From an uncultured delta proteobacterium (GTDB taxonomy: Bacteria > Desulfobacterota > Desulfobacteria > Desulfobacterales > Desulfosalsimonadaceae), in NCBI GenBank assembly GCA_963826785.1, contig CAWGYD010000010.1, positions 192,001 to 256,000 of the forward strand: DNA of 64,000 nt, in the 5' to 3' direction. A program made the position numbers and the translations under genes. Positions within the stretch are counted from its first letter, which is position 1. Each line of letters starts with the position of its first letter. The notes beneath the pieces were generated by a model that did no database searches, had not been told where the DNA came from, and saw only the letters and a list, made by a program, of their open reading frames with translations. This document shows positions 15,082-64,000 of the stretch, in pieces.

Positions 15082-17214
15082 ATGGCCTTAGATCTGGATG
15101 CCGTCGGAAAGAAAATCGGCCCCATTTCCAAAGATTACAACTGGAAAGATGTAATCCTGTATGCATTGGGCGTGGGTTCCGGATTTTCCGAACCCGAGTT
15201 CACCTATGAAAAAGACCTGAAAGTGATTCCCTCTTTTTCCATAGCGACGATATTTGATTTCCTGACCCATTTCGCCATCAAGGCCAATGTGAATCTGGCC
15301 GGCATTCTGCATGGCGAGCAGGACCTGATCTTTCATCAACCCATCCCCATTGAAGGGACCCTGACCACGGACGGCCAGATCACCCATTTTTATGACAAGG
15401 GGAAAGGCAAAGGGGCCCTGATGGTCGGCGAAAGCGACACTTACCATTCGAACGGCAAAAAGCTGTTCACCAGCAAGCTGACCCTGTTTGCGCGTCTGGA
15501 TGGCGGCTTTAACGGTGAGGAAGCGCCAAAGGAAACCTTTGCTTTTCCGGAAAAAGCCCCCGATTTTGAAATAGAAGCCCGCCCCGACCCGGATCAGCCG
15601 CTCCTCTACCGGCTTTCCGGCGACGTATTTGCACTCCATGCCGATCCCGAGTTCGCCAAGATGGCCGGGTTTGAAAAGCCGATCATGCATGGGCTCTGCA
15701 CCTACGGGTATGCCTGCCGGGCTCTCATGCAGAGCCTGACCCCGGGTGAACCGGAAAAGGTCCGCCGGCTCAAATGCCGTTTTTCCCGCCCCCTGTACCC
15801 GGGCGACCCGATCCGGACCCAGATCTGGAAAACCGGGGATGGCCGTGCGGTGTGGAAGGTCATCAATACCAAATCCGGCGAAGAGGTCATCACCAACGGT
15901 GTTTTCGAATACGGCGACGTTCCCAGAAATGAACTGCGCTTTGATGATCAGGTGGCCATCGTGACCGGCGCCGGCGGCGGCCTGGGAAAAGTGTACGCCC
16001 TGGAACTGGCCAAGCGCGGCGCTAAAGTGGTCGTCAATGACCTGGGTGGAAGCCGTGACGGACAGGGCGGCGCCAGGGGACCGGCAGACCAGGTGGTGGA
16101 TGAGATCACGGCCATGGGCGGCCAGGCCGTGGCCAACTATGATAACGTGGCCACCCCGGAAGGCGGCGAAAACATCGTCAAATCCGCCCTGGAAACATTT
16201 GGCACCGTGGACATCCTGATCAACAACGCGGGAATTCTTCGGGACAAGAGCTTCATCAAAATGGAGCCCGAAAACTGGAAAGCGGTGCTGGATGTTCACC
16301 TGGTGGGCGCCTATAACGTCACCCGGCCGGCATTTGCGGTCATGCGGGAAAAAGGCTACGGCCGAATCATCATGACCACCTCCGCAGCCGGCCTGTACGG
16401 CAATTTCGGTCAAACCAACTACAGCGCCGCCAAGATGGGGCTGGTGGGCTTCATGAATACCCTGAAGCTGGAAGGCCGTAAATACGACATCAAGGTCAAC
16501 ACGGTGGCCCCTATTGCTGCCTCACGCTTGACCGAGGACATCATGCCCCCGGATCTCTTTGAAAAACTCAAACCCGAGTATGTCTCGCCCCTGGTGCTTT
16601 ACCTGTCGTCGGATCGCTGCAAGGAAACCGGTTATATGTACAACGCCGGAATGGGATTTTTCAACCGGGCCGCCGTGGTCACCGGCTCCGGAACCACCAT
16701 CGGCGACGGGATCAACCCGCCGGCCGCGGAAGATGTGGCTGCCAGTTTCGACAAGATCAGCTCGCTTTCCGGAGGGAAGGAATACGGGGAACTGAACGAA
16801 CAGGTGGGCGACCTGATGAATGCATTTTCCGCTCCCGCTTCGGGCAGCGGACAGCGTGCCGGAAAAAAGCAGGCCGGCTCGGTGAAGGATGTTTTTTCCG
16901 CCATGGCCGATGCCTTCGACCCTGAAGCCGCCAAAGGCGTGGATGTGATATTTCAGTACCACATTTCCGGGGATAAGGGAGGCGACTGGCAGGTGGTGAT
17001 TCAAAATCAGACCTGCACGGTTTCACCGGGGGTTCACGAAAAGCCCACCTGCACGCTGAAGATGCAGGATATCGATTTTCTGGACATGATCGGCGGCACC
17101 CTGCCCGCCATGCAGGCGTACACGTCCGGAAAGCTGAAAATCGAGGGGGACATCATGAAATCCCAGCTGATCGAAAAACTGTTCAAATCATATAATAAGG
17201 AGATCAAATCATGA
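15082..17214 (+). CDS. Fusion: MaoC-type (R)-enoyl-CoA hydratase 2 + SDR (R)-3-hydroxyacyl-CoA dehydrogenase + SCP2 (MFE-2-like, permuted order)
   Basis: YRLSGDxxxLHxDP...HGLCT hydratase-2 motif; TGAGGGLG, NNAG, YSAAK; C-terminal AYTSGKLKIEGD SCP2. Confidence 0.9.
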   Translation: MALDLDAVGKKIGPISKDYNWKDVILYALGVGSGFSEPEFTYEKDLKVIPSFSIATIFDFLTHFAIKANVNLAGILHGEQDLIFHQPIPIEGTLTTDGQITHFYDKGKGKGALMVGESDTYHSNGKKLFTSKLTLFARLDGGFNGEEAPKETFAFPEKAPDFEIEARPDPDQPLLYRLSGDVFALHADPEFAKMAGFEKPIMHGLCTYGYACRALMQSLTPGEPEKVRRLKCRFSRPLYPGDPIRTQIWKTGDGRAVWKVINTKSGEEVITNGVFEYGDVPRNELRFDDQVAIVTGAGGGLGKVYALELAKRGAKVVVNDLGGSRDGQGGARGPADQVVDEITAMGGQAVANYDNVATPEGGENIVKSALETFGTVDILINNAGILRDKSFIKMEPENWKAVLDVHLVGAYNVTRPAFAVMREKGYGRIIMTTSAAGLYGNFGQTNYSAAKMGLVGFMNTLKLEGRKYDIKVNTVAPIAASRLTEDIMPPDLFEKLKPEYVSPLVLYLSSDRCKETGYMYNAGMGFFNRAAVVTGSGTTIGDGINPPAAEDVAASFDKISSLSGGKEYGELNEQVGDLMNAFSAPASGSGQRAGKKQAGSVKDVFSAMADAFDPEAAKGVDVIFQYHISGDKGGDWQVVIQNQTCTVSPGVHEKPTCTLKMQDIDFLDMIGGTLPAMQAYTSGKLKIEGDIMKSQLIEKLFKSYNKEIKS

Positions 17215-19955
17215 TTGGAATCACATCTTACGGCGCCTATATTCCCCGTTTGAGATTAAACCGGATGGCGATTTTTCAAAGCATGGGATGGTTCGCCCCG
17301 GCGGTCATCATGGTGGCCCAGGGGGAACGCTCCATGTGCAACTGGGATGAAGACCCCATCACCATGGCGGTTGCCGCTTCCAGGGACTGCCTGGCCGGCA
17401 TGGACAAATCCGGAATCGACGGGATGTTTCTGGCCTCAACCACCCTGCCCTTTGCCGACCGCCAGAACGCCGGCATCGTGTCAACGGCCTTGAATTTACC
17501 GGACCAGATCGCCACGGCAGATTACACCTCCTCCCAGAAAGCGGGCACCAATGCCCTGCTCGGAGCCCTGGAATCCGTCAAAAGCGGCGAGCGCAAATCC
17601 GTTCTGGTGACGGGCACGGACCAGCGGGAAACCCGGCCGGCCTATTTTTATGAAATGTGGTTCGGCGACGGGGCGGCATCCCTTCTGGTGGGCGACACCG
17701 ATGTGATCGCCGAGTTCAAGGGCTCCTATTCGGTCTCCTATGACTTCGTGGACCATTATCGCGGCGCCCGGAAGCGTTTCGACTACACATGGGAGGAACG
17801 GTGGGTCCGGGATGAAGGATATTCCAAGATCATTCCGGAAGCAGTTAACGGACTGCTGAAAAAATGCAATCTGAACATCCAAGATGTCAGCAGACTGGTT
17901 TATCCCTGCTATTTCAAAGCCGAACACCGGGGCATCGCCAAAAAACTGGGGGCCTCCGCCGGGCAGCTGGTGGACAACCTGCACGAGGTGTGCGGCGAAA
18001 CCGGCACGGCCCATCCCCTGCTCATGCTGACCCAGGCCCTGGATGAAGCCAAACCCGGCGACAAAATCGTGGTGGCCGGGTTCGGCCAGGGATCGAATGC
18101 CTTTTTGTTTCAGGTGACTGAAAATATCGAAAAACTGCCCAGGCGGGATAAATTCAAGACCACGCTGGAGTACAAGGAAACGATCGACAATTACCCCAAG
18201 TTCCTGGAATTCAGAAATTTGATCGAGCCGGAGCGCGGCATCCGTGCCGAATCGCCCACCCAGACGGCCGTGACCGTCCTGTGGCGCCGGCGCAAAATGC
18301 TGCTGGGTCTGGTGGGCGGAAAATGCAGTGCCTGCGGCACCGCCCAGTTTCCCAAAACCCAGGTGTGCGTCAACCCCGCCTGCGTCGCCCATCATACCCA
18401 GCAAGACTATGAATTTGCAGATATTCCCGCCAAGGTAAAGACATATACCGGCGATCTGCTCGCCGTATCGGTGGACCCGCCCCACATTTACGGCATGGTC
18501 CAGTTCGAGGGGGGCGGCCGGTTCATGGCCGATTTTACCGACTGCAAGCTAAACGAGGTCAAGGTCGGGCTTCCCGTGCAGATGGTATTTAGAAAACGCG
18601 GTGATGACCCCCAGCGCGGCTTTGTCAATTACTTCTGGAAAGCCACCCCCATTCCCGGCGCCGCCGACGAGCTGAACAAGATCCGTTTCGACGGCCGGGT
18701 GGCCATTGTCACCGGTGCCGGCGGCGGACTGGGCCGCACTTATGCGCTGGAAATGGCCAAACGCGGCGCGGCCGTGGTCATCAACGATCTGGGCGGCGCC
18801 CGTGACGGTTCCGGCGGCGGCTCGACCTCGGCTGCGGACAAAGTGGTCGAGGAAATCAAAGCCATGGGCGGAAAGGCCGTTGCCAACTACGACAATGTCG
18901 CCACCCCCGAAGGGGGCGAAAACATCGTCAAGGCCGCCATGGACGCCTTCGGCCGGGTGGACATCCTGATCAACAATGCGGGCATTCTGCGGGACAAGAG
19001 CTTTACCAAAATGGAGCCGGACAACTGGGCCGCGGTCAAGGCGGTTCATTTGAACGGGGCATACAACGTAACCCGCCCCGCCTATAAAATCATGCGGGAA
19101 AACGGCTTCGGCCGCATCATCATGACCACATCGGCCGCCGGTCTGTACGGCAATTTCGGCCAGACCAACTACAGCGCCGCCAAGATGGCCCTGGTGGGTT
19201 TGATGAACACCCTCAAGCTGGAAGGCCAGAAATATGACGTGAAGGTCAATACGGTGGCCCCCATCGCCGCTTCCCGGCTCACCGAGGATATCATGCCGCC
19301 GGAAGTGTTTGAAAAACTCAAACCCGAATTCGTGGCCCCGCTGGTGCTCTATCTGTGCAGCGAAAAATGCGGGGAAACCGGAAAGATATTCAATGCCGGG
19401 ATGGGCTACTTCAACCGGGCGGCCGTTCTGACCAGCCCGGGCATCAAGCTCGGCGAAGGCGATCAGCTTCCCACGCCCGAAGAGATCAGCGAAAAAATCG
19501 AGCACATCAACGACATGGAAGGGGCCAAGGAATTTGCGGATTTGAATTCCGCCCTGATGGACCTGATGACCCCAAAAGCCGCCGTCGCCAAAAAAGGCCC
19601 TGAAAAGGAAGCCGGGGGGGCCGACGGGGGGGCCAAGGTGAGCGTTGCGGAAATTTTCGACAAGATGCCCGGCGCCTTCAACAAAGAGGCCGCCAAGGGA
19701 GTGGATGTGGTCTTTCAGTATGACATCTCCGGACCGTCCGGCGGGCAGTGGACCGTCGCCATCAAGGATCAGACCTGCACGGTCTCCCAGGGCACTGCCG
19801 ATAAGCCGACCTGCACGCTGAAAATCGCCGATGCCGACTTTGTCGACATGATTTCCGGGGTGCTCGATCCCATGAAGGCGTTTACCACCGGGAAACTCAA
19901 GATCGATGGAGACGTGATGAAATCCCAGCTGATCGGGAAACTGTTTAAACTCTAA
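15937..19955 (+). repeat. Duplicated SDR-SCP2 coding module (about 15937-17190 and 18684-19955)
   Basis: Identical DNA runs such as ACATCCTGATCAACAA, ACCAACTACAGCGCCGCCAAGATGG and TTTGAAAAACTCAAACCCGA in both copies. Confidence 0.9.
17211..19955 (+). CDS. Fusion: HMG-CoA-synthase-like + DUF35 (Zn-ribbon/OB fold) + SDR + SCP2
   Basis: GITSYGAYIPR, DEDPITMAV, GDGAA; CSAC...CVNPAC and YFWKA; second SDR (YSAAK); SCP2 AFTTGKLKIDGD; ATGA overlap with the upstream gene. Confidence 0.88.
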   Translation: MIGITSYGAYIPRLRLNRMAIFQSMGWFAPAVIMVAQGERSMCNWDEDPITMAVAASRDCLAGMDKSGIDGMFLASTTLPFADRQNAGIVSTALNLPDQIATADYTSSQKAGTNALLGALESVKSGERKSVLVTGTDQRETRPAYFYEMWFGDGAASLLVGDTDVIAEFKGSYSVSYDFVDHYRGARKRFDYTWEERWVRDEGYSKIIPEAVNGLLKKCNLNIQDVSRLVYPCYFKAEHRGIAKKLGASAGQLVDNLHEVCGETGTAHPLLMLTQALDEAKPGDKIVVAGFGQGSNAFLFQVTENIEKLPRRDKFKTTLEYKETIDNYPKFLEFRNLIEPERGIRAESPTQTAVTVLWRRRKMLLGLVGGKCSACGTAQFPKTQVCVNPACVAHHTQQDYEFADIPAKVKTYTGDLLAVSVDPPHIYGMVQFEGGGRFMADFTDCKLNEVKVGLPVQMVFRKRGDDPQRGFVNYFWKATPIPGAADELNKIRFDGRVAIVTGAGGGLGRTYALEMAKRGAAVVINDLGGARDGSGGGSTSAADKVVEEIKAMGGKAVANYDNVATPEGGENIVKAAMDAFGRVDILINNAGILRDKSFTKMEPDNWAAVKAVHLNGAYNVTRPAYKIMRENGFGRIIMTTSAAGLYGNFGQTNYSAAKMALVGLMNTLKLEGQKYDVKVNTVAPIAASRLTEDIMPPEVFEKLKPEFVAPLVLYLCSEKCGETGKIFNAGMGYFNRAAVLTSPGIKLGEGDQLPTPEEISEKIEHINDMEGAKEFADLNSALMDLMTPKAAVAKKGPEKEAGGADGGAKVSVAEIFDKMPGAFNKEAAKGVDVVFQYDISGPSGGQWTVAIKDQTCTVSQGTADKPTCTLKIADADFVDMISGVLDPMKAFTTGKLKIDGDVMKSQLIGKLFKL

Positions 19956-47525: not shown

Positions 47526-48020
47526 CTACTGATTTTTCCCTGGTGTTTTCTGCTCCGGGCTGTCGCCATTTTCCTTCTTTTCGTTTTTGAAATACAGAGA
47601 TTCAAATTCATTCACCAGTTTGCGCAGCCGCTCCACATGAGTCAAATCGGTGGTCTGCTTGCTCAGCATGGCCTGAATCAGCATTTCATGAAGCTGCTGG
47701 AGCTTTTGCACATAATTTTCATCATCGGGTTTCACCCGCTGGGTCATGAAATAATCAGACACGGTTTCCTGTATCTTGTCGGCGTGGATCTCTTTATCGT
47801 CGATCCATCGAACCAATTGATTGTAGTTGATATTTTTTTCTTTTTGCAAAGAGGTGATTGAGTTCATGGCCTTTTCGATGGTGGTGATATCTTCCCGGAT
47901 CATATCGATCCGCATATGGTCGTCATATATGCCGCAGGGAAGCTGACAATGCGCCCACGCCTGGCCGCCTGAGAATAAAAATAGTATTGCGATCAAGATC
48001 ATCTGAAACTTGGTTTTCAT
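47526..48020 (-). CDS. sodN: Nickel superoxide dismutase with Sec signal peptide
   Basis: Ni-hook HCQLPCGIYD directly after signal peptide ...QAWA; RBS GGAGG. Confidence 0.9.
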   Translation of the reverse strand: MKTKFQMILIAILFLFSGGQAWAHCQLPCGIYDDHMRIDMIREDITTIEKAMNSITSLQKEKNINYNQLVRWIDDKEIHADKIQETVSDYFMTQRVKPDDENYVQKLQQLHEMLIQAMLSKQTTDLTHVERLRKLVNEFESLYFKNEKKENGDSPEQKTPGKNQ

Positions 48021-48178
48021 GTGCTTACCTCCATTTCCATGGTCAGGTTTAAAACATAGAAACCAGCGGATACTTTTGCGGTTTCGGCCCACCGATTTTT
48101 CCTTACATTTTTTTTGTATCCATGCGATCGGTTCCACCGGCGGCCGGATTCATCAATTCTCGGGGTCAGGCCGCGGGG

Positions 48179-53459: not shown

Positions 53460-55193
53460 TCAGAAACTGAATACCGCGTCCAGTTCCTCATCCTTGACGC
53501 CGAACCGCACATCGTGGGGCGGCAGGGGTTCATTTATAAAATATGCGGGAAGGCGGTCGTCCTTGGATGAAAAGCCGGCCCGCTCATTGAAATCCCGCTC
53601 CATGGTCAGCACCTTTTTCCCCAGTTCACTCACGCCGTCCGCGTTTAAGTCCAGGCCGTAAAAGGCATTGATCATGTCGATCAGGGCGGCAAAAGTTTCC
53701 GGCTGGTCCATGATGGCAAAAGCGATGAACAGGCACATGCCCGTGGAATCAATGGCCGCAGTGGCGATCTGAAGATTTCGGGACAATTCGATCTGTCCTT
53801 CCGGCTTTAGCGGGTCCACGCTGCCGCCCACGCCCAGCAGGTTGGTGGCCACCGCATATCCGGCGGTATGGTCGGCGCCCATGGGGCTGGTGGCATAGGT
53901 GACGCCGATCCCCTGGACCGCCCGGGGGTCATAGGCGGGCATGGACTGGTTTTTCACCACCGGGACGCGCTCCACTCCGAAGACTTTTCCGGTGACCCCG
54001 GCACCGCTCCCCAGGATCCGGCCCAGGGGGGTCCCCTTCCCCACTTCGCTGACCAGTCGGACGGCGGCCTCGGCATCCCCGAATTCCGCCAGACCGGCCT
54101 CCATGGCCACCCCGATGGTGGCGCCCATCTCGATGGTGTCCAGGCCGAAATCATCATCCATCCGGTCCAGGGCGGCGATGACATCCAGATCGTCGATGCC
54201 GCAGTTTCCGCCGTGTGCCCACACGGTTTCATATTCCGGCTGCTTGGTCATGAAATGGCCGTCCTTGTCCGTGTAAATGCCGGAGCACTGGATCACGCAC
54301 CCCCGGTGACACCCGTGGGTTGCCTTTCCGCCCCGGGCCATTTCGGTTTCGGCCTGGGTTTCGCCGGAAATCCGGGCCGCACCCTTGAAGCGTCCCCACT
54401 GGAAGTTGTGGGTGGGGTATCCGCCCGCTTCATTCACCACGTTGGTCAAGACATTGGTCCCGTATGCGGGCAAGCCCTGGCCGGTGACCGGGTGGGATTT
54501 CAATCCCTGCACAAAGATCTTGTTGGCTTGCCGGAACTTATCCGGATCCCTGGGGGGACGCATTTTCGCGCCCGTATCATCCAGCACGATGACTTTGACG
54601 CCCTTTGATCCCATGACCGCGCCCACACCCCCTCTTCCGGCATGGCGGGTGGGCCGCAGTTCCATATCGGTGCAGGCAATGGAAGCCGCGCCCAGCTTCA
54701 TCTCCCCGGCCTGTCCGATGGACATGCAGCAGATATTTTCCCCGTATTCCTGCTTCATTTTTTCCACCAGGTCGTAGTTGCCCAGGCGCTTCAAGCTGTT
54801 GTCCGGGGAGATGGTGACCCCGTCCTTGTTGATGAAAATCTTATACAGCGTATCATCTGCGGGTTTTCCTTCGATGACGATGGCCGCATAACCGAGCCGG
54901 GCCAGAACCTGCGAGGGCATGCCGCCGGCATTGGCTTCCTTGATGCCGCCGGTGAGCGGGCTCTTGCACCCCACCGACAGCCGGCCGGACATGGCGGCCG
55001 TGGTGCCGCTCAGCAGTCCGGGGGCAAAGACCAGCCGGTTGTCCTGGCTTAAGGGATGACACAAGGGAGGAACCTCTTTGGAAACAATGGCCGAGGTGAG
55101 TCCCCGGCCGCCCAGACCGGCGTACTTGTCCCGGGATTCGGTTTTGAAGGCGGGGCTGTCCGGCCCCATGTTGATTCTCAGAATCTTGTCCAT
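53460..55193 (-). CDS. Aldehyde:ferredoxin oxidoreductase (tungsten AOR family), second paralogue
   Basis: KSPLTGGIKE, AGRGGVGAVMGSKG, GCHRGCVIQC, PEYET, DDFGLDTI, GADHT; RBS GGAGG. Confidence 0.95.
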   Translation of the reverse strand: MDKILRINMGPDSPAFKTESRDKYAGLGGRGLTSAIVSKEVPPLCHPLSQDNRLVFAPGLLSGTTAAMSGRLSVGCKSPLTGGIKEANAGGMPSQVLARLGYAAIVIEGKPADDTLYKIFINKDGVTISPDNSLKRLGNYDLVEKMKQEYGENICCMSIGQAGEMKLGAASIACTDMELRPTRHAGRGGVGAVMGSKGVKVIVLDDTGAKMRPPRDPDKFRQANKIFVQGLKSHPVTGQGLPAYGTNVLTNVVNEAGGYPTHNFQWGRFKGAARISGETQAETEMARGGKATHGCHRGCVIQCSGIYTDKDGHFMTKQPEYETVWAHGGNCGIDDLDVIAALDRMDDDFGLDTIEMGATIGVAMEAGLAEFGDAEAAVRLVSEVGKGTPLGRILGSGAGVTGKVFGVERVPVVKNQSMPAYDPRAVQGIGVTYATSPMGADHTAGYAVATNLLGVGGSVDPLKPEGQIELSRNLQIATAAIDSTGMCLFIAFAIMDQPETFAALIDMINAFYGLDLNADGVSELGKKVLTMERDFNERAGFSSKDDRLPAYFINEPLPPHDVRFGVKDEELDAVFSF

Positions 55194-55951: not shown

Positions 55952-56527
55952 ATGAAACTGGTCAATTATTTATCTGAAATCGATGCGGGCCGCTGCAGCG
56001 GCTGCCGGAAATGCGAGACCGTCTGTCCCGCTGGCGCCATATCCGTTGAAAACCGGTTTGCCCGGGTGGATGCCGGCCGCTGCCTGGCCTGCACCAAGTG
56101 CTGGCATCTGTGTCCGGAGGATGCGGTGACCATGGTTGAACGCAGCGAAGAGATGATGGTGGGGGTGGATTTCGACGAGGTGGATGAAACCGCCGTGGCC
56201 GAATTGTGCCAAAAAGCCCATGTCTACCCCGAGCAGTTCGTGTGCGCCTGCACCCTGACCCTGGCCAAGGAAGTGGCGGCCGCCATCATCAAAGGGGCTT
56301 CCACCCCCGAGGAAGTCACCGCCGCCACCGGGGTGCGCTCGGGCTGCGCCATCTACTGCATGGGGGCGATTCTGCGGATGCTCAAGGCCGCGGGCAAACA
56401 CCCGGTGCCGCCCAAAAATCACCGATGGTACGACCTGTCACTCTCCCTCTGGGATGTAAAAGATCAAATAGCGGAGAAATACCCCCGCTATTATCTGGCT
56501 GAAGACCGTGACGAAATGCACGAATAA
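55952..56527 (+). CDS. 2x[4Fe-4S] ferredoxin fused to BFD-like [2Fe-2S] domain
   Basis: CSGCRKCETVCP, CLACTKCWHLCP; CAC...GCAIYC. Confidence 0.85.
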   Translation: MKLVNYLSEIDAGRCSGCRKCETVCPAGAISVENRFARVDAGRCLACTKCWHLCPEDAVTMVERSEEMMVGVDFDEVDETAVAELCQKAHVYPEQFVCACTLTLAKEVAAAIIKGASTPEEVTAATGVRSGCAIYCMGAILRMLKAAGKHPVPPKNHRWYDLSLSLWDVKDQIAEKYPRYYLAEDRDEMHE

Positions 56528-56534
56528 TTGATTC

Positions 56535-57989
56535 ATGACCGATTTTTTCCATAGAAGCCGCCACGGAAAAGCGGCCGCGCCGCCTGAGGTGATGCCCTCT
56601 TGCATGTGCCCGGAACCGGCCATGCGGGCAGCCGGTCTTTCCGGCATGACCTCCCTTTCCATAACCGATCTGTTTCCTGAAATGCGCAAGGGGTTTGTTC
56701 AAAAGCAGGGGGTCGCCGAAATCCGAAAATCCGCCGAAGCAGCCCTGGCCGGGGTGGAAATGGGGATGATCCTGCCCGAGCACCGGGTCAATATTCTCTG
56801 CTCGGAGCATGGATTCTACCTGCTGGAGGGGGACCATTACCTTCAGATGCTGCTGGCCATCCGGGATGCGGTGGAAGAGCGGACCGGGTGCCAAAACATC
56901 CGGCTGCGGGTGGCGGCCGGCATGGGGTCTCGCGAGTCGGAAGAAATCATCGAATATTTCCGCATCCGGGAAAAATTCAACGGCAGGGTAACGGGCATGA
57001 GCGCCTTTGACCGCGGCGTTCCCATCGATACGCAGATCGGAACCCTCTACGGCCTGGCCGCGGCCTATGATGCCGACTGGATCATCCATGCCGGCCACGA
57101 GGAACCCCGGGACCTCTATTTTTACCGGATGATCGACCGGGCCCTCAAGGCATTTGCCATGTCCTATGCCCGGTTTGAAACCCGGTCGGTCTACCACGGC
57201 AACTTCGGCAACAGAAGCTGCGCCTTTATCCAGCGGGCCATCTTCGACGCTCCCTTCGTGCAGGAAAAGTTCGCCTTCGGCGTTTTTATGCGCATGTCGC
57301 CCGCCGGCATCACCGGGGTTTCAGCCGACAATGATCTCGATCGCCTGGGGGAGCACCTCACCATCGACATCCTGCGGGATTTTGGAAAAATGCTGCACCT
57401 GCTGGCGGACATCGACGAATGCATCGTGATCTTAGACGGCGGCCGCTACGGCTACTACATCCACGCCGGCGGCATCGTCTTCGGTGCCCTGGAAAACGCC
57501 CAGTATGATGCATTCGATCTTTCCCGGCCCGCGGCTTTCGGCTATTACGACATGCTCTCAAAGATGCGCAACGGAACCGATGCCCAGATGGATCATGTCA
57601 TGAACGTCAACCCGGCCATCAAGGCCGTGATCTTCAACCAGGCCTGGCCGGGCATCCCCATGGCGGGGCTCACCCTGGATGTGTCCACCATCGTGGTGGG
57701 AGACCAGCAGGCAGCCGCCATGAAGCTGGATGCCGCCAATCCCGCCCTGATCGACCTGGCCGAAACCGTCCCCACGCTAAAACAGGCCCTCGAACTGGCC
57801 ATTCAAGAGACGGGAACCGATAAGGTGCTGGTGTTTGACGGCAGCTTCGGGCACATCACCGTCAGCCCCTTACTGGCCCAGACCCTCATGGCAAAAGCAC
57901 CGGAGATCAGCCGCAGGGTGGAAACAGAGCTGCTCCCCCTCTGGCTTTCCCAGCGGGGGATCGATCTAAATACCGCTAAGCGCGTTTAA
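56535..57989 (+). CDS. Uncharacterised protein, distant LarA N-terminal/DUF362-like fold
   Basis: RVNI, AAGMGS, AYDADWII, ALKAFAMS resemble the PAMGSH / AD.II / GL.KM..IG pattern of that superfamily. Confidence 0.5.
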   Translation: MTDFFHRSRHGKAAAPPEVMPSCMCPEPAMRAAGLSGMTSLSITDLFPEMRKGFVQKQGVAEIRKSAEAALAGVEMGMILPEHRVNILCSEHGFYLLEGDHYLQMLLAIRDAVEERTGCQNIRLRVAAGMGSRESEEIIEYFRIREKFNGRVTGMSAFDRGVPIDTQIGTLYGLAAAYDADWIIHAGHEEPRDLYFYRMIDRALKAFAMSYARFETRSVYHGNFGNRSCAFIQRAIFDAPFVQEKFAFGVFMRMSPAGITGVSADNDLDRLGEHLTIDILRDFGKMLHLLADIDECIVILDGGRYGYYIHAGGIVFGALENAQYDAFDLSRPAAFGYYDMLSKMRNGTDAQMDHVMNVNPAIKAVIFNQAWPGIPMAGLTLDVSTIVVGDQQAAAMKLDAANPALIDLAETVPTLKQALELAIQETGTDKVLVFDGSFGHITVSPLLAQTLMAKAPEISRRVETELLPLWLSQRGIDLNTAKRV

Positions 57990-57999
57990 ACCCCTTGCC

Positions 58000-58803
58000 A
58001 TGAACGACATTCGCGACAATCTCTTCGGCCCCGTTTCAGACCGGATCTATGCGGCCGCCATCATTGCCGAGGAACCCGGCATTCTGGCCGGATCGGCAGC
58101 TGCGGCTGAAAAGGCCCGTGAACTGGGCCTGAAGATGATATCCTTTAAACCGGCGGGCGCCCGAATTCTTCAAGGTGAGACACTCGGCGCATTTTCCGGA
58201 TCGCCATTGCAACTTGCCCGGGCCGGGGACCTGCTGGCCGGATGCATGGCCAAGCCGTCCGGGATTGCCACCGCTGCCCGGCAATTTGTGGAAAAAGCCG
58301 GCAGCCGTCCAAAGATCGTGTGCGGGGCCTGGAAAAAGATGCCCGCCCCGATCAAGGGGATCATCCGGGAGGCCGTTGCTGCCGGCGGTGCGGGCATCCG
58401 GGTCAGCGAGGCCCCCTTTGTCTACCTGGACAAAAATATGGTGAAGATGCTGGGCGGCATCCGGGCTGCACTGGATGCTGCAAAAAGAATAGAGGGCCGG
58501 GTGCGGGTCATCCAGATCGACGGAAAAATGGAAAACATTTCCGAAGAAGCCGTCCTTGCCGCCCGTGGCGGTGCCGGCATCATCTTCATCGATTCCGGCG
58601 TTATCACGGATATAGACCGGGTTTCACGCGCACTGGCACATGCCGGCCTGCGCTCAAGTGTCTTTCTGGCCTACGGGGGCGGCATCACCCTGGCCGATAT
58701 GGACCGGATCTGTGACACCGACGCGGATATCGTGGATGTGGGCCGGGCCATCATCGATGCACCGCTTCTGGATATGCGCCTGGAGGTGGCGGCAGATCAA
58801 TGA
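58000..58803 (+). CDS. Divergent NadC/ModD-family (type II) phosphoribosyltransferase
   Basis: EPGILAG, SGIATAA, AVAAGG, DKN, IIFID, GGI, DIVDVG, APLLD; the canonical TRKT motif is replaced by AWKK. Confidence 0.8.
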   Translation: MNDIRDNLFGPVSDRIYAAAIIAEEPGILAGSAAAAEKARELGLKMISFKPAGARILQGETLGAFSGSPLQLARAGDLLAGCMAKPSGIATAARQFVEKAGSRPKIVCGAWKKMPAPIKGIIREAVAAGGAGIRVSEAPFVYLDKNMVKMLGGIRAALDAAKRIEGRVRVIQIDGKMENISEEAVLAARGGAGIIFIDSGVITDIDRVSRALAHAGLRSSVFLAYGGGITLADMDRICDTDADIVDVGRAIIDAPLLDMRLEVAADQ

Positions 58804-59678
58804 CCCATCGGCTGCTTGAAAAAACCGAACTCTGGATCCGCGGCATCGTGCTCGAGGGGGCCGATTTAAATGAGATCGCGAAAGCGGTGGCCGATATCCT
58901 GGGGATTTCACCCCGCCATGTGCTGGTCACCGATTATCAATGCCCGGATCTGGCCCTGGATGTACTTGCCCAGACCATCGATCCGGCACATTTTGCCGGC
59001 CGGAAAAATGCACTGTTTGAGCGCCTCTTAAAAATCGCCGGGGTGAAAATCTCGTCCGATGCCGATATCGGCGCAAACGGGATGCTGGGATGGCTCGCGG
59101 CGGACCCGGAGCAATCCGGTGCGTCTGTTGCCCGCTCGGCGGAAATGATCCGGGAAATCAATTCCCGCATTCAATCCCGGGCCATTGTCTTTTCCACGGG
59201 AAGCGAGGTGGCCGCCGGCCAGATCAGGGACACTAACACCCCTCTGATCTGCGCATTGCCTGGAAAAGATCGGCTATACGTCAACCCCCGGCCCCACCCT
59301 CCCCGACGACCGCAACCGCATTGCCGCAAAACTGAGACAGGCGGCCGATGAACAGGGATACGGGCTGATCATCACCACCGGCGGGGTGGGCGCTGAAGGA
59401 AAAGACCACACCATAGAAGCCGTCCTCACGGTAATCCCCGATGCAGCCGCCCCCTATGTGTGTCATTTCGAGGTGGGCACCGGCCGGCATGTCAAGGACG
59501 GGGTCCGGATCGCCGCCGGTTGCCGGGGGAAACGCTGATCATCGCGCTTCCGGGACCCAATGATGAAGTGAGACAGTGCATGACCGTCATTGCCGGGTTT
59601 CTCCCCCATGACCCCGATCCTGCCCGCCTGGCAGACGCACTGGCCGCCTGCCTGCGCCTCAGATGGCACCATCCTTAA
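58800..59678 (+). pseudogene. Molybdopterin-binding (MoCF/MogA/CinA-like) protein with N-terminal extension, broken by two compensating frameshifts (or assembly errors)
   Basis: Frame 1 to STGSEV...IRDTN; +1 frame about 59257-59530 has LPDD...IITTGGVG..KDHT; returns to the first frame at the G5 run 59525-59529 with IIALPGP. Confidence 0.8.
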
Positions 59679-61120
59679 ACGTGATAAATTTTGTCCGCGC
59701 CCGTCTTTGGATCCAAATAGGTGATCACGCTCTTATAGGATCTTAAATCCACGACAGCGGTGGCTTTCAGGGGGTCATCGGTCCAGGAGATGACGACCTG
59801 GTCCTCGGGGCAGTCTTCGATCCTGAATGTGCCGTTAAATACCGGGTACTCGGACCTGAATTTCATCAGCGCCATCAATCGCTTCACGGCCGGTTTTTCC
59901 ATGGCCGCGCCGACCTCCTCCAGGGTGTAGTTGTGGCGGTTGATGAAGCGGCCGTTTCGGGTGCGCTCCACCAGTTGGATGTCGTTCTCGCCGGCCAGCA
60001 GACCCACGTAGTAAACCTGGGGGATGCCCGGGGCGAAAAACTGGATGGTCCGGGCGGCCAGATAGGCGTCGTCGTTGTTTTCCAGGGCCGAATAATAGGT
60101 GCAGTTTACCTGGTAGATGTCCAGGTTGTGGTACTCGGCTCCCGAATACATCCGCTTCATGTTGGACCCTTTTTCATAGAGTCCGTTCAAGGTCTTATCG
60201 ATCAGGTCATCGGACATCAGCCCGCGCACATCCACCACGCCGATGCCGTCATGGGTGTCCAGCGTGGTGATCTGCTTGCGGGGGCAGATCTCCAGCCATT
60301 GCTTGAGCTCCTTGTGAGTATGGTGATACAGGGTGTGGATCAGCAGCATGGGCAGGGAAAAATCGTAGCACCAGTACCCTTTTTCCGAAAGCTTGAGCTG
60401 GTAGCGGTGATGCTCGTGCACCTCGGGGAGGATGTCCGCGCCGAAAGGACGAACATATTCTGCCAGCCACCGGATGACATCCCATATCTCCGGCTCCTCG
60501 AAAAAGCAACGGGTGCCGATCTTCTTGATCACATAGGCGATGGCATCGAGCCGGATCATCTTTGCCCGGGTCCGGGCCAGGTTGATCAGGTTGTAGCGAA
60601 GAAAACTACGGGTGACCGGGGAGCCGATATCGATATCGATCTGCTCGGTATCGAACGTGCACCACACCTTTTCCCGTGATCCGTCCTTTCGGTCCTGAAC
60701 GATATAGGGCGGACGGGGCTTGCGCGTATACACCTTCTCCAGCTCCGCATCCGTAATCGGCTCCTTGCGCAGCTTGTCAAAGGTGAGAAACATGTCCGCA
60801 TATTCGGACTTGCTGCTTTTTTCCGTAAAATCCTGGTAGTAGTGGGATTGCCGGGAGATGTGGTTCACCATGAAATCGAGAATCAGATCGAATTCCGCCC
60901 CGATCAACTCCAGGTCTTTCCAGCGCCCGAATCGCGGATCCACCTCTTCGTAGGTCTTGGGCGCAAATCCCCGGTCGCTGCTGGAGGGATACACCGGCAG
61001 GATGTGGACCCCGCCGATGACATCGGCCAGGTATCGCTTCAGCACGTAATGGAGTTCGGCCAGGTTGTCTCCCAGGCTGTCCGGGTAGGTGATCAGTTGC
61101 ACTTTGTTCTGAATGGTCAT
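59675..61120 (-). CDS. gtfA: Sucrose phosphorylase (GH13_18)
   Basis: VQLITYPDSLG, DRGFAP, MVNHIS, IRLDA, LPEVH, DTHDGIG, LDIYQ loop, PQVYYVG. Confidence 0.85.
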   Translation of the reverse strand: MTIQNKVQLITYPDSLGDNLAELHYVLKRYLADVIGGVHILPVYPSSSDRGFAPKTYEEVDPRFGRWKDLELIGAEFDLILDFMVNHISRQSHYYQDFTEKSSKSEYADMFLTFDKLRKEPITDAELEKVYTRKPRPPYIVQDRKDGSREKVWCTFDTEQIDIDIGSPVTRSFLRYNLINLARTRAKMIRLDAIAYVIKKIGTRCFFEEPEIWDVIRWLAEYVRPFGADILPEVHEHHRYQLKLSEKGYWCYDFSLPMLLIHTLYHHTHKELKQWLEICPRKQITTLDTHDGIGVVDVRGLMSDDLIDKTLNGLYEKGSNMKRMYSGAEYHNLDIYQVNCTYYSALENNDDAYLAARTIQFFAPGIPQVYYVGLLAGENDIQLVERTRNGRFINRHNYTLEEVGAAMEKPAVKRLMALMKFRSEYPVFNGTFRIEDCPEDQVVISWTDDPLKATAVVDLRSYKSVITYLDPKTGADKIYHV

Positions 61121-61206
61121 GCGTCCATTTCTTTCATCGGGCGGTTTGCATTTTTCAAATAGGCCCTTTTGTGTAGATCCGTTGCGGTGCAAATCAGGAA
61201 AAATTT

Positions 61207-63375
61207 TTATCCGAGAAAACGGTAATGGTCCATTCCTTCCAAAATTCCGGCGGCGCAGGCTTTGTCGGCGAAATAGACGTATTTGGCGCCTTTTAATTTT
61301 TTGAGTTCCGGACTGAAGTTGCCCACCACTACACCGCGCGGTTCGCCCCGGAGCATTTCCTCGTCATTTCCCGAATCCCCGCAGACCAGAAAGGCGGACA
61401 GGGGCACTTCCCACTTGTAGCTCAGGTAGCGGATGGCTTTTCCCTTGGAGGCACGGTACGGCAGGATATCCACGAACTGCTCGTGGGAATAGACCAGGGT
61501 ATATCGGCACTTGTTTCCCACCAGGCAGTTATGAACCTCGGTGATCCGGTCTTTTCCCGGGTCGATGTTGTAGCTGACCTTGAATTTGCGCTGGGCTTCT
61601 TCCGCCTGGTATTCAAGGAATTTAAACCGCTTCAGCAGATCGCGCACTTTCTTCCGGTCCCACCGGTCCGCGATGTGGGCTTCCCACCCTTTGTCGTACT
61701 CCAGATCGGGTCCATAGTAAATTTCAGTCCCCACCGACGCCACGATAACGTCCGGCGGCGCCACCCGGTATTCTTCGAGAATGTCTACCGCCGAATCGAT
61801 GGTCCTGCCGGTGGACACACCGAAACCGAGCTTCTGACGATGATCCGCCACCGCCTGGAGCAGGGGCTCGAGCCCGGCGTTTTCTTCCCCGATCAGGGTA
61901 TTGTCGATGTCGGTGATCAGAAACCGCTCCACGTTCACCAGCCGTTTTCCCACGGGTTTGCCGTTTCCGGGGGTAATGCCGGCCGCTCCTTTTTCATTGG
62001 CCAGAGGGACGGCCGCTTTCATGTAGGCATCCGCATGCTGTTCCCAGGCATAGTGCTTCCTGACGTTCATGATGCCGTTTTTGGAATATTGGTTCCAGAG
62101 CGTTTCATCGGTCAGGATTTTCCGGATCGCTCCCGTGATGGCCTGATGATCGTTCGGGTCCACCAGGATTCCGTTTTCGCAATTTTCGATGATGTCCCGG
62201 GGGCCGCCGTCGTTGGTGGCCACCAGGGGCAGTCCGGTGGCGGCGGCCTCCAGCAGGGTCAGGCCGAAGGGCTCGGTCCATGCGGCATTGACGAAAACTC
62301 CCCGTTTGCCTGCGGCGATGCGGTAGAGTTCGGGCACCTCGGATGCGACGTCGTGCTCCTTGGGAATGGCCAGTTTCCCATAGAGGTCATACCGGTCCAT
62401 GTCGAGCAGCATCTGGGTGAGGACCTGCTTTTCGTTTTCCTCCATGTCGTCGATGTCCTTGCGGATGCCGGCGAATACGGCCAGGTTGGCCATGGCCTGC
62501 AATTCATGATCCTCACCATAGGCCTTTACCAGCCCGGTGATGTTTTTGCGCTTGTCCGGCCGGCAGATCGCCAGGATCAGCGGCTTGTCCGGATACATGA
62601 GAAACCGCTCCAACTGGTTTAAAAGAGTGGCCTGGGCGTATTTTTCCAGTTCGGATTTTTCGAATTCCGGAAGCCGGTCATGGTAATACGGGTAAAACCG
62701 CTCCAGGTCGATTCCCGGCGGGATGACCCGGTATTCGGGAAATTCCGAGTTGCGGTACATGCCGTACTGGTTTGAAATTTCCTGGCGGGTGCTGGTGACG
62801 ATCAGGTCCGCATTCCGGATGATCCGCTCTTCGATGGAAATCCGGGTATCCATTCGATAACTTCTGGAGATTTCCTTTTCCGGCATGCCGTCGTTTACAA
62901 GCTTCTGTTTCTTGGGCCTTCCCAGGCTGTGGCCGGTAAAGGCAAAGGGGACGCCGAAGATGCGGGCCAGCTCCATGGCCACGTATCCGGCGTCCGGATA
63001 ATGGCCGTGGACGATATCCGGCAGCCGGTTTTTCTTGATGAATTTGATGGTTTTGTCGATGAATTCATCCAGATGCGGCCACAGCAGTTCCTTTCGCATG
63101 TATTTTTTCCCGCCGCACTGGATCCGGATGACTCGGCATTTATCATCGACTTTCGACACCGGCTGGGCATAATCCGGCGAGACCGAGGGATCGTCGATGA
63201 GCCGCGTAAACAGATCGACCTGGCAGACATCGTCCCTGCGGCACAGATTTTTCACCAGTTCGAGCACATACGTCACCTGCCCGCCCGTATCGGCATCCCG
63301 CCCCAGTTCCGGGTTCTCCGGCCGGATCAGGCCGTGAATGGAAAACATCTGAATGTATAGTTTTTCTTTGGCCAT
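61207..63375 (-). CDS. Sucrose-phosphate synthase with C-terminal HAD sucrose-phosphatase domain
   Basis: ELGRDADTGGQVTYV, HGHY, TGHSLG, RPDKRKN, EPFGLT; TDIDNTL, ASKG, GDSGND. Confidence 0.92.
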   Translation of the reverse strand: MAKEKLYIQMFSIHGLIRPENPELGRDADTGGQVTYVLELVKNLCRRDDVCQVDLFTRLIDDPSVSPDYAQPVSKVDDKCRVIRIQCGGKKYMRKELLWPHLDEFIDKTIKFIKKNRLPDIVHGHYPDAGYVAMELARIFGVPFAFTGHSLGRPKKQKLVNDGMPEKEISRSYRMDTRISIEERIIRNADLIVTSTRQEISNQYGMYRNSEFPEYRVIPPGIDLERFYPYYHDRLPEFEKSELEKYAQATLLNQLERFLMYPDKPLILAICRPDKRKNITGLVKAYGEDHELQAMANLAVFAGIRKDIDDMEENEKQVLTQMLLDMDRYDLYGKLAIPKEHDVASEVPELYRIAAGKRGVFVNAAWTEPFGLTLLEAAATGLPLVATNDGGPRDIIENCENGILVDPNDHQAITGAIRKILTDETLWNQYSKNGIMNVRKHYAWEQHADAYMKAAVPLANEKGAAGITPGNGKPVGKRLVNVERFLITDIDNTLIGEENAGLEPLLQAVADHRQKLGFGVSTGRTIDSAVDILEEYRVAPPDVIVASVGTEIYYGPDLEYDKGWEAHIADRWDRKKVRDLLKRFKFLEYQAEEAQRKFKVSYNIDPGKDRITEVHNCLVGNKCRYTLVYSHEQFVDILPYRASKGKAIRYLSYKWEVPLSAFLVCGDSGNDEEMLRGEPRGVVVGNFSPELKKLKGAKYVYFADKACAAGILEGMDHYRFLG

Positions 63376-64000
63376 TTACTTCCTGTTAACCAGTTTGAGA
63401 TAGGGTTCGTAAAAGTCGTGCGCGTCCGGCACGGCCCCGGCAATGGTGCAGATATCTCCGGCAAAGCGCGATGCAGTCTCAAGGGTCTGTTTCGATGGCC
63501 ATCCGTTTAAATAGCCGACCACCAGCATGGCCGCATACGCATCCCCTGCCCCCACCGTATCCTGCACCTGCCGGATTTCCGGGACCCCCGCCTCATATAG
63601 GTCCTCCGGCGTCACCAGCATGCTTCCCGAACTGCCCCGGGTCACGGCCATGTTCCGGATCCCGAAGCGCTCCATCAGCAAGCCGGGCAATTGCTGGCGG
63701 GTTGCCTCCGGCGCAAACATTTCCCCCAGCAGGACCAGTTCGTCCGCGTTGAGTTTCAGATAATCCGTGTGCCCCAGGGAAGCGTGGATGATCTCTTTAG
63801 AATAGGCATTTTGCCGCAGGTTGACATCATAAAAGGCAACTGTGGCCGCATCTTTGTTCTCAAGAAATGCCTGGAGCCGCTCCATCGCTTTTGCGGTGCG
63901 CTGCACCAGGGTGCCGAAATAGATCAGTTCCACCCCGTTGCCGCCGGAAAGTGAATCCGGGTGATCCGGCAGTTCGATCCGGTCATAGGCGACATTTTCT
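63376..64000 (-). CDS. PfkB-family carbohydrate kinase (fructokinase-like), 5' end outside the window
   Basis: YFGTL, DVNLR, KLN..EL, VTRG, DTVGAGDA; frame is open to the edge (ENVAYDRI...). Confidence 0.9.
   Translation of the reverse strand, partial: ENVAYDRIELPDHPDSLSGGNGVELIYFGTLVQRTAKAMERLQAFLENKDAATVAFYDVNLRQNAYSKEIIHASLGHTDYLKLNADELVLLGEMFAPEATRQQLPGLLMERFGIRNMAVTRGSSGSMLVTPEDLYEAGVPEIRQVQDTVGAGDAYAAMLVVGYLNGWPSKQTLETASRFAGDICTIAGAVPDAHDFYEPYLKLVNRK

Follow-up and report, generated by a model that had tools for sequence, protein, structure and literature searches.

Nickel enzymes are few, PMC13524815 counting 12, and the nickel-pincer enzymes that it treats catalyse racemisation, hydride shuttling or cyclodeamination; no coupling to ferredoxin was found among them. 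The paper also describes pincer-cofactor systems with other folds, NphT included, which use the pincer beyond racemisation, and a dinucleotide variant, indicating that the cofactor can be tailored. The LarA superfamily is represented by the lactate racemase of Lactiplantibacillus plantarum (PDB 5HUQ/6C1W), LarA of Isosphaera pallida (9EIA), malate racemase (7S91) and a single-His LarA (9Q3J). From a stretch of 64,000 nucleotides belonging to an uncultured delta proteobacterium of the Desulfosalsimonadaceae (GCA_963826785.1, contig CAWGYD010000010.1, forward-strand positions 192,001 to 256,000; hereafter the window), an operon of four plus-strand genes (55952-56527, 56535-57989, 58000-58803 and 58800-59678) was deduced whose second product has a predicted LarA fold at 10-17% identity to these proteins. 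The set is a real, conserved and undescribed module, made up of a LarA-fold enzyme family that current models do not cover, an iron-sulfur (Fe-S) partner dedicated to it and a pair of shared, presumed maturation proteins, and no account of it was found in the literature searched. In the NphT discovery paper, neither ferredoxin nor the partner families of the module are mentioned in the text parts and most supplement files covered; the word ferredoxin is absent from the main text, and the fold of NphT differs from that of the gene 2 family.

As best explanation, which in our judgement might equally well prove right or wrong, the LarA-fold enzyme and its Fe-S partner would form a ferredoxin-linked oxidoreductase acting on a nickel-pincer-type cofactor that is tailored by the NadC-like and MoCF proteins. 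The observations behind it are the fold match of the model, conserved Lys and His at the anchor positions, loss of the racemase His pair, a 1:1 pairing with ferredoxin and a NadC-like gene that is single in the genome.

A LarA-fold protein with its own iron-sulfur partner

The operon genes are spaced by 7 nt, then 10 nt, and genes 3 and 4 overlap in an ATGA, the same tight coupling as described in an earlier sequence-only reading, whose ferredoxin/BFD, NadC-like and MoCF assignments also agree with the Pfam domain matches. Its label LarA/DUF362-like for gene 2 survives in part, as the LarA fold was recovered with Foldseek and VIA-align on a predicted model and a match to DUF362 or Lar_N was not. 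At E 0.1, the 484-aa product (56535..57989) matched no Pfam or NCBIfam family, including Lar_N, LarA and DUF362, and, lacking a Pfam model, the enzyme would be missed by pipelines tallying the Pfam neighbours of larBCE. The AlphaFold2 model of residues 30-484 (pLDDT 92.6) has the two-domain LarA architecture and returned LarA structures only in both searches, and Atlas features place the protein with LarA-like clusters at 0.97.

For relatives of gene 2, one genome per species was scanned, giving 97, and the best 80 loci were analysed, many of which end at contig edges; carrier genomes counted 76. The operon genes co-occur widely across these genomes, with ferredoxin at 76/80, NadC-like at 59/80, MoCF at 58/80 and all four genes at 54/80 loci. 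At the same time the module is patchy, being present in 4/151 genomes of the source order and 2/101 of the Caproiciproducens family. A quick tree with midpoint root resolves clade I (48 rows, 48 loci), mostly Bacillota and uniform in its active site, and clade II (34 rows, 32 loci) from Thermodesulfobacteriota and Myxococcota with the window copy included, both at 100% SH-aLRT. Most operon relatives come from anaerobes, and cultured carriers include Aneurinibacillus danicus, Geosporobacter ferrireducens, Desulfosporosinus fructosivorans and Caproiciproducens faecalis. Family members were also seen in archaea (L042 and L055; Methanomethylicia, Bathyarchaeia) and in a Pseudomonas isolate (protein P0108), and up to four enzyme paralogues occur in one genome.

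By a weak profile alignment (probability 18%, E 0.0013), Lys205 and His221 correspond to the LarA anchors Lys184 and His200 and are the predicted pincer anchors; both positions are conserved in 82/82 family members. The catalytic His108 and His174 of LarA are replaced in the window copy by Gly131 and Tyr195. Across the family, His occupies the first of these positions in only 2/82 members and the second in 48/48 of clade I and 0/34 of clade II. Unlike the LarA superfamily, the gene 2 family has other residues at the positions of His108 and Arg75, and clade II also at that of His174, and the family adds an obligate Fe-S partner and the NadC/MoCF pair, which points to net redox chemistry and not to racemisation.

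This partner, a 191-aa ferredoxin (55952..56527, plus strand), combines an N-terminal 2x[4Fe-4S] domain with a BFD-like [2Fe-2S] domain and ends in a C-terminal tail specific to the family; it scores above the Pfam cut-offs for Fer4 and Fer2_BFD, and Cys44, 47, 50, 54, 86, 98, 100, 132 and 136 are invariant in 45/45 sequences. Ferredoxin and enzyme genes stand 1:1 in five multi-copy genomes, a count that bears on a rival explanation in which the LarA-fold protein isomerises or racemises its substrate without net redox change, ferredoxin serving only to reset an over-reduced or oxidised cofactor. Such a reset factor need not duplicate with each paralogue, yet the ferredoxin does. Moreover, the conversion of furoate to 2-oxopent-4-enoate proposed below for clade I would consume two electrons net, and clade I loci share no further conserved gene for a reductase. 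We consider an isomerase rather improbable, although according to PMC13524815 all characterised LarA-fold enzymes are racemases or epimerases, LarA homologues with a single His are known (PMC12611868), clade I uniformly retains the His174 equivalent and ordinary LarA is also found at four loci.

The NadC-like and MoCF proteins and the source of the cofactor

The product of gene 3 (58000..58803, plus strand; 267 aa) shares with the quinolinate phosphoribosyltransferase NadC the N-terminal domain and barrel of the type II phosphoribosyltransferase fold (QRPTase_N, QRPTase_C), whereas alignment to solved NadC reveals a rebuilt active site. Lys112, Arg134, Asp198 and Gly248 at NadC-type positions are invariant in 50/50 sequences of the NadC-like family, in contrast to the motif changes TRK to WKK, HR to xR, KDNH to DKNY and EVE to QIK and an acidic residue in place of the N-terminal Arg. 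In line with the altered phosphoribosyltransferase deduced earlier, the protein reaches 86.7 bits against TIGR00078 (cut-off 198.4), which together with the altered quinolinate-binding motifs, as we take them to be from presumed residue roles, sets it apart from NadC. The gene is present in 72/76 carrier genomes. In 13/15 multi-copy genomes it is single and serves 2-4 divergent enzyme paralogues, at odds with the role in making an activated substrate that had been considered; the other role then considered, in handling a cofactor, fits the behaviour of the NadC-like/MoCF pair as machinery for a redox-linked LarA-fold enzyme. Within the sample of the source order, the NadC-like gene is confined to those three genomes in which the enzyme gene is complete and is found in 0/147 genomes without the enzyme, most of which have larC. 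The protein is likely a shared cofactor-maturation factor.

Gene 4 (58800..59678, plus strand) encodes, as judged from its sequence, the MoCF fold of MogA, MoeA and CinA with its acidic nucleotide-pyrophosphate site. Compared with MogA, MoeA domain III and the CinA N-terminal domain, it has an extra invariant Arg-His-x-Lys loop and a 120-residue N-terminal domain (beta-alpha-beta-beta-alpha-beta) without family assignment, and this type is fused to the NadC-like protein in four loci (L040, L060, L070 and L073) as a single chain of 570-600 aa. In the window, gene 4 is split across frames, a feature absent from the earlier reading, by two compensating shifts, +1 near 59247-59251 and -1 in the G run 59525-59529, the start frame hitting a stop at 59349-59351 between them. 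A close-strain contig that spans the second site only (214 nt, 9 differences, depth 2.6) carries an extra G there. Because 5/93 tested gene bins of the assembly are split, two of the five being gene 4, the shifts are likely an assembly error, the alternative being a real pseudogene. A second aldehyde:ferredoxin oxidoreductase (AOR) gene of the genome (G000:C6:29514-31398) is split over two frames as well, and several split genes hint at assembly indel errors.

That larB, larC and larE are missing from the window, as noticed before, holds; in the genome-wide search, contig C8 proved to end with larB and contig C2 to carry larC, and no ordinary LarA was found. A self-contained module, as had been envisaged, is not what the carriers indicate: larC is present in 70/76 and larE in 66/76 of them, and clade I loci contain lar genes in 15/48 and the NicO transporter in 3/48 cases. 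This physical linkage is stronger evidence than co-occurrence at the genome level. Twelve carriers have larC and larE and no Lar_N match, among them the complete Aneurinibacillus genome, where larBCE adjoin the enzyme. In Aneurinibacillus and Alicyclobacillus loci without other LarA, larC and the NicO nickel transporter lie inside the operon, contrary to what would be expected of a non-nickel family, in which the MoeA-like protein would load the pincer ligand with a metal other than nickel, or the cofactor made by the pair would be an unrelated nucleotide, the larBCE link being partial or incidental. To this idea we assign the least weight of all, its grounds being the acidic motif that the MoCF domain retains from MoeA/gephyrin-E and CinA alignments, the likening of the LarC mechanism to that of the Mo insertase Cnx1 (PMC13510736) and the missing larC match in 6/76 carriers.

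For the ferredoxin-linked oxidoreductase, the following sequence of events is proposed. LarB, LarE and LarC, encoded in trans in the source genome, would make the pincer nucleotide, whose pyridinium mononucleotide might be bound or transferred by the NadC-like barrel, and the MoCF domain would cleave the nucleotidyl-pyrophosphate bond to give the cofactor form used by the enzyme family. With Lys205 tethering the cofactor and His221 binding nickel, the Fe-S partner would provide two single electrons, enabling the cofactor to deliver a net hydride that is not returned as in racemisation. Alternatively, the same redox enzyme may be accompanied by a pair that only salvages or repairs the ordinary nickel-pincer mononucleotide, re-ribosylating the released pyridine base and trimming dinucleotide forms with no new cofactor form arising. 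A general function of this kind would be expected in genomes having LarA only, yet the NadC-like gene is absent from the enzyme-free genomes of the order, which makes salvage unlikely in our view. It is consistent with the retention in gene 3 of the NadC Arg, Lys, Asp and Gly for nicotinate mononucleotide at the loss of the second-carboxylate positions (residue roles as we presume them), with a nadD-like gene in two loci and with Breznakiella homolactica, in whose complete genome (G062, locus L067) the module is present in full together with three LarA genes of the ordinary kind and no larB, larC or larE match was found, a pattern that suggests cofactor uptake or salvage.

Several points weigh against the oxidoreductase proposed here, which draws on sequence, predicted structure and gene context. 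No flavin partner for the switch from one- to two-electron transfer is evident, the anchors were mapped through the weak profile alignment given above, and LarA Arg75 is without counterpart in gene 2. Regarding cofactor supply, larE was not found in the source genome (87.8% complete), lar genes are present in 0/32 clade II loci, and besides the complete B. homolactica genome without larBCE there is genome G098 (93% complete), where the enzyme and larE occur without larC. As larC occurs in 128/151 genomes of the source order, its presence in the same genomes carries little weight for clade II.

Candidate substrates of the two clades

For clade I, we slightly favour 2-furoate as substrate, its furan ring being opened without oxygen. 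Among the 48 loci, 33 have a gene resembling 2-oxopent-4-enoate hydratase, 27 an aldolase plus acylating acetaldehyde dehydrogenase, 28 BenE and 25 an M24-fold protein, all of these genes being absent from the 32 clade II loci. Adding two hydrogens to furoate gives the formula of 2-hydroxypenta-2,4-dienoate, on which the hydratase acts. The reaction would be 2-furoate + 2[H] to 2-hydroxypenta-2,4-dienoate (2-oxopent-4-enoate), which hydratase, aldolase and acylating acetaldehyde dehydrogenase would convert to pyruvate and acetyl-CoA. Hydride addition at C5 and C-O cleavage would not need deprotonation of a hydroxyl group, consistent with the lost His pair, and an adjacent AOR could deliver reduced ferredoxin from furfural. 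Furthermore, UbiD is encoded in eight clade I loci, with 6H6V as best solved relative, the furan-2,5-dicarboxylate decarboxylase PtHmfF according to PMC8988006 and PMC6644310. In the 76 genomes, 13/13 HmfF-type UbiD genes have an enzyme gene no more than 18 kb away, a contig-end fragment being involved in one case.

The aerobic-type 2-furoate pathway of Cupriavidus basilensis, encoded by hmfABCDE with a gene make-up as we assume it, includes a Mo-dependent furoyl-CoA dehydrogenase, a CoA ligase and a thioester hydrolase. It has in common with clade I loci a decarboxylase of HmfF type, UbiX and transporters of related MFS and BenE families; the proposed step differs in being reductive, CoA-free and ending in 2-oxopent-4-enoate. 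In a reverse scan, the best 80 of 546 metagenome loci showed a Mo-hydroxylase in 21, a CoA ligase in 24 and a crotonase-family gene of presumed hmfABCDE type in 21 cases; module genes were found in three, none of which also had hmfABCDE-type genes. Transporters of module and hmf-type loci are 40-59% identical. Conversely, hmfA- or hmfE-like genes at 40% identity occur in 0/80 module loci and the CoA ligase (43%) in 1/80, and hmfA-like, hmfE-like and furoate-type CoA ligase genes were not found in the source genome.

A C5 N-heterocycle would also lead to 2-oxopent-4-enoate, after reduction and ammonia loss. In the activated-substrate version, the NadC-like protein would N-ribosylate a heteroaromatic acid (pyrrole-2-carboxylate or picolinate), with the LarA-fold enzyme opening the activated ring and MoCF recycling the sugar phosphate; the metal-free M24-fold hydrolase of clade I loci could then remove the nitrogen. 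With the single NadC-like gene facing several paralogues of differing active sites and neighbours, and with the linked decarboxylase and transporters being of furan type, this appears very unlikely. The M24-fold protein (L069:11535-12641 and 19 homologues) has invariant motifs of its own and has lost what we take to be the usual M24 metal ligands; it is a candidate ring-opening hydrolase or isomerase.

Reductive furoate degradation has evidence against it as well. The hydratase assignment is below cut-off with a modest lead over the decarboxylase model, and neither a hydratase gene nor any HmfF- or hmfA-like gene was found in the source genome. The anaerobic furfural route of Desulfovibrio furfuralis is cited as oxidative in PMC11384913, so that a reductive furoate route would be a separate path.

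For the clade II copy in the window, furoate is an improbable substrate. Most likely, it would reduce some other carboxylic acid, unsaturated or heterocyclic, that feeds CoA-dependent oxidation; its nearest relatives have AORs, CoA ligases, SDRs and HpaB-family genes nearby without fixed pattern. Within clade II, a subgroup (L024-L032, L039, L041 and L056) is located beside 2-oxoacid dehydrogenase E1/E2/E3, a branched-chain-type ABC importer, a MaoC pair, a lactonase-family gene and a PaaK-like ligase, a context that is a distinct, unnamed catabolic route. L012 and L013 carry tandem ferredoxin-enzyme pairs from different subclades, next to a TonB-dependent receptor, a non-HmfF UbiD and AOR, and a linalool dehydratase-like gene was seen in L012 and also in L014.

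Quite tentatively, the module might represent the first family of ferredoxin-driven nickel-pincer oxidoreductases, with a further-modified cofactor from the NadC-like/MoeA-like pair, clade I supplying a missing anaerobic, CoA- and ATP-free reductive furan opening and clade II acting on other heterocyclic or unsaturated acids. A pincer enzyme with Fe-S electrons and its own maturation pair would then mean new cofactor chemistry. Furans are the main inhibitors in plant-biomass hydrolysates, and the four-gene kit together with the cultured carriers would give access to their anaerobic breakdown.

Neighbouring genes in the window

The divergent neighbour of the operon is an AOR gene (53460..55193, minus strand; Pfam AFOR_N/C). 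AOR-family genes occur at 9/80 loci, and a close homologue of the window AOR only at L017 (57.5%); the enzyme is a possible electron partner of the module and not a fixed part of it. Pfam supports the TSUP, AOR, MoaD and ThiF genes reported next to the operon, yet they do not share its transcription unit, as TSUP, AOR and ThiF are on the minus strand and MoaD, on the plus strand, forms a separate unit. The sulfur supply ascribed to them is not supported, given TSUP in 0/80 and this MoaD plus ThiF in 1/80 related loci; more simply, MoaD and ThiF presumably serve the cofactor of the AOR. A gene of the nickel superoxide dismutase family, some 8 kb away from the operon, is located at 47526-48137 (minus strand; Pfam Sod_Ni above cut-off). 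At 59675-63999 (minus strand), a sucrose-type cluster includes a glycosyltransferase with S6PP domain, flanked by what we take, reading the sequence, to be glycoside phosphorylase-like and PfkB-like kinase genes. Finally, 15082-19952 (plus strand) encodes two large fusion proteins side by side, each with SDR and SCP2 domains and the first with MaoC hydratase domains in addition; a thiolase comes next, and the group resembles a multifunctional beta-oxidation enzyme set.

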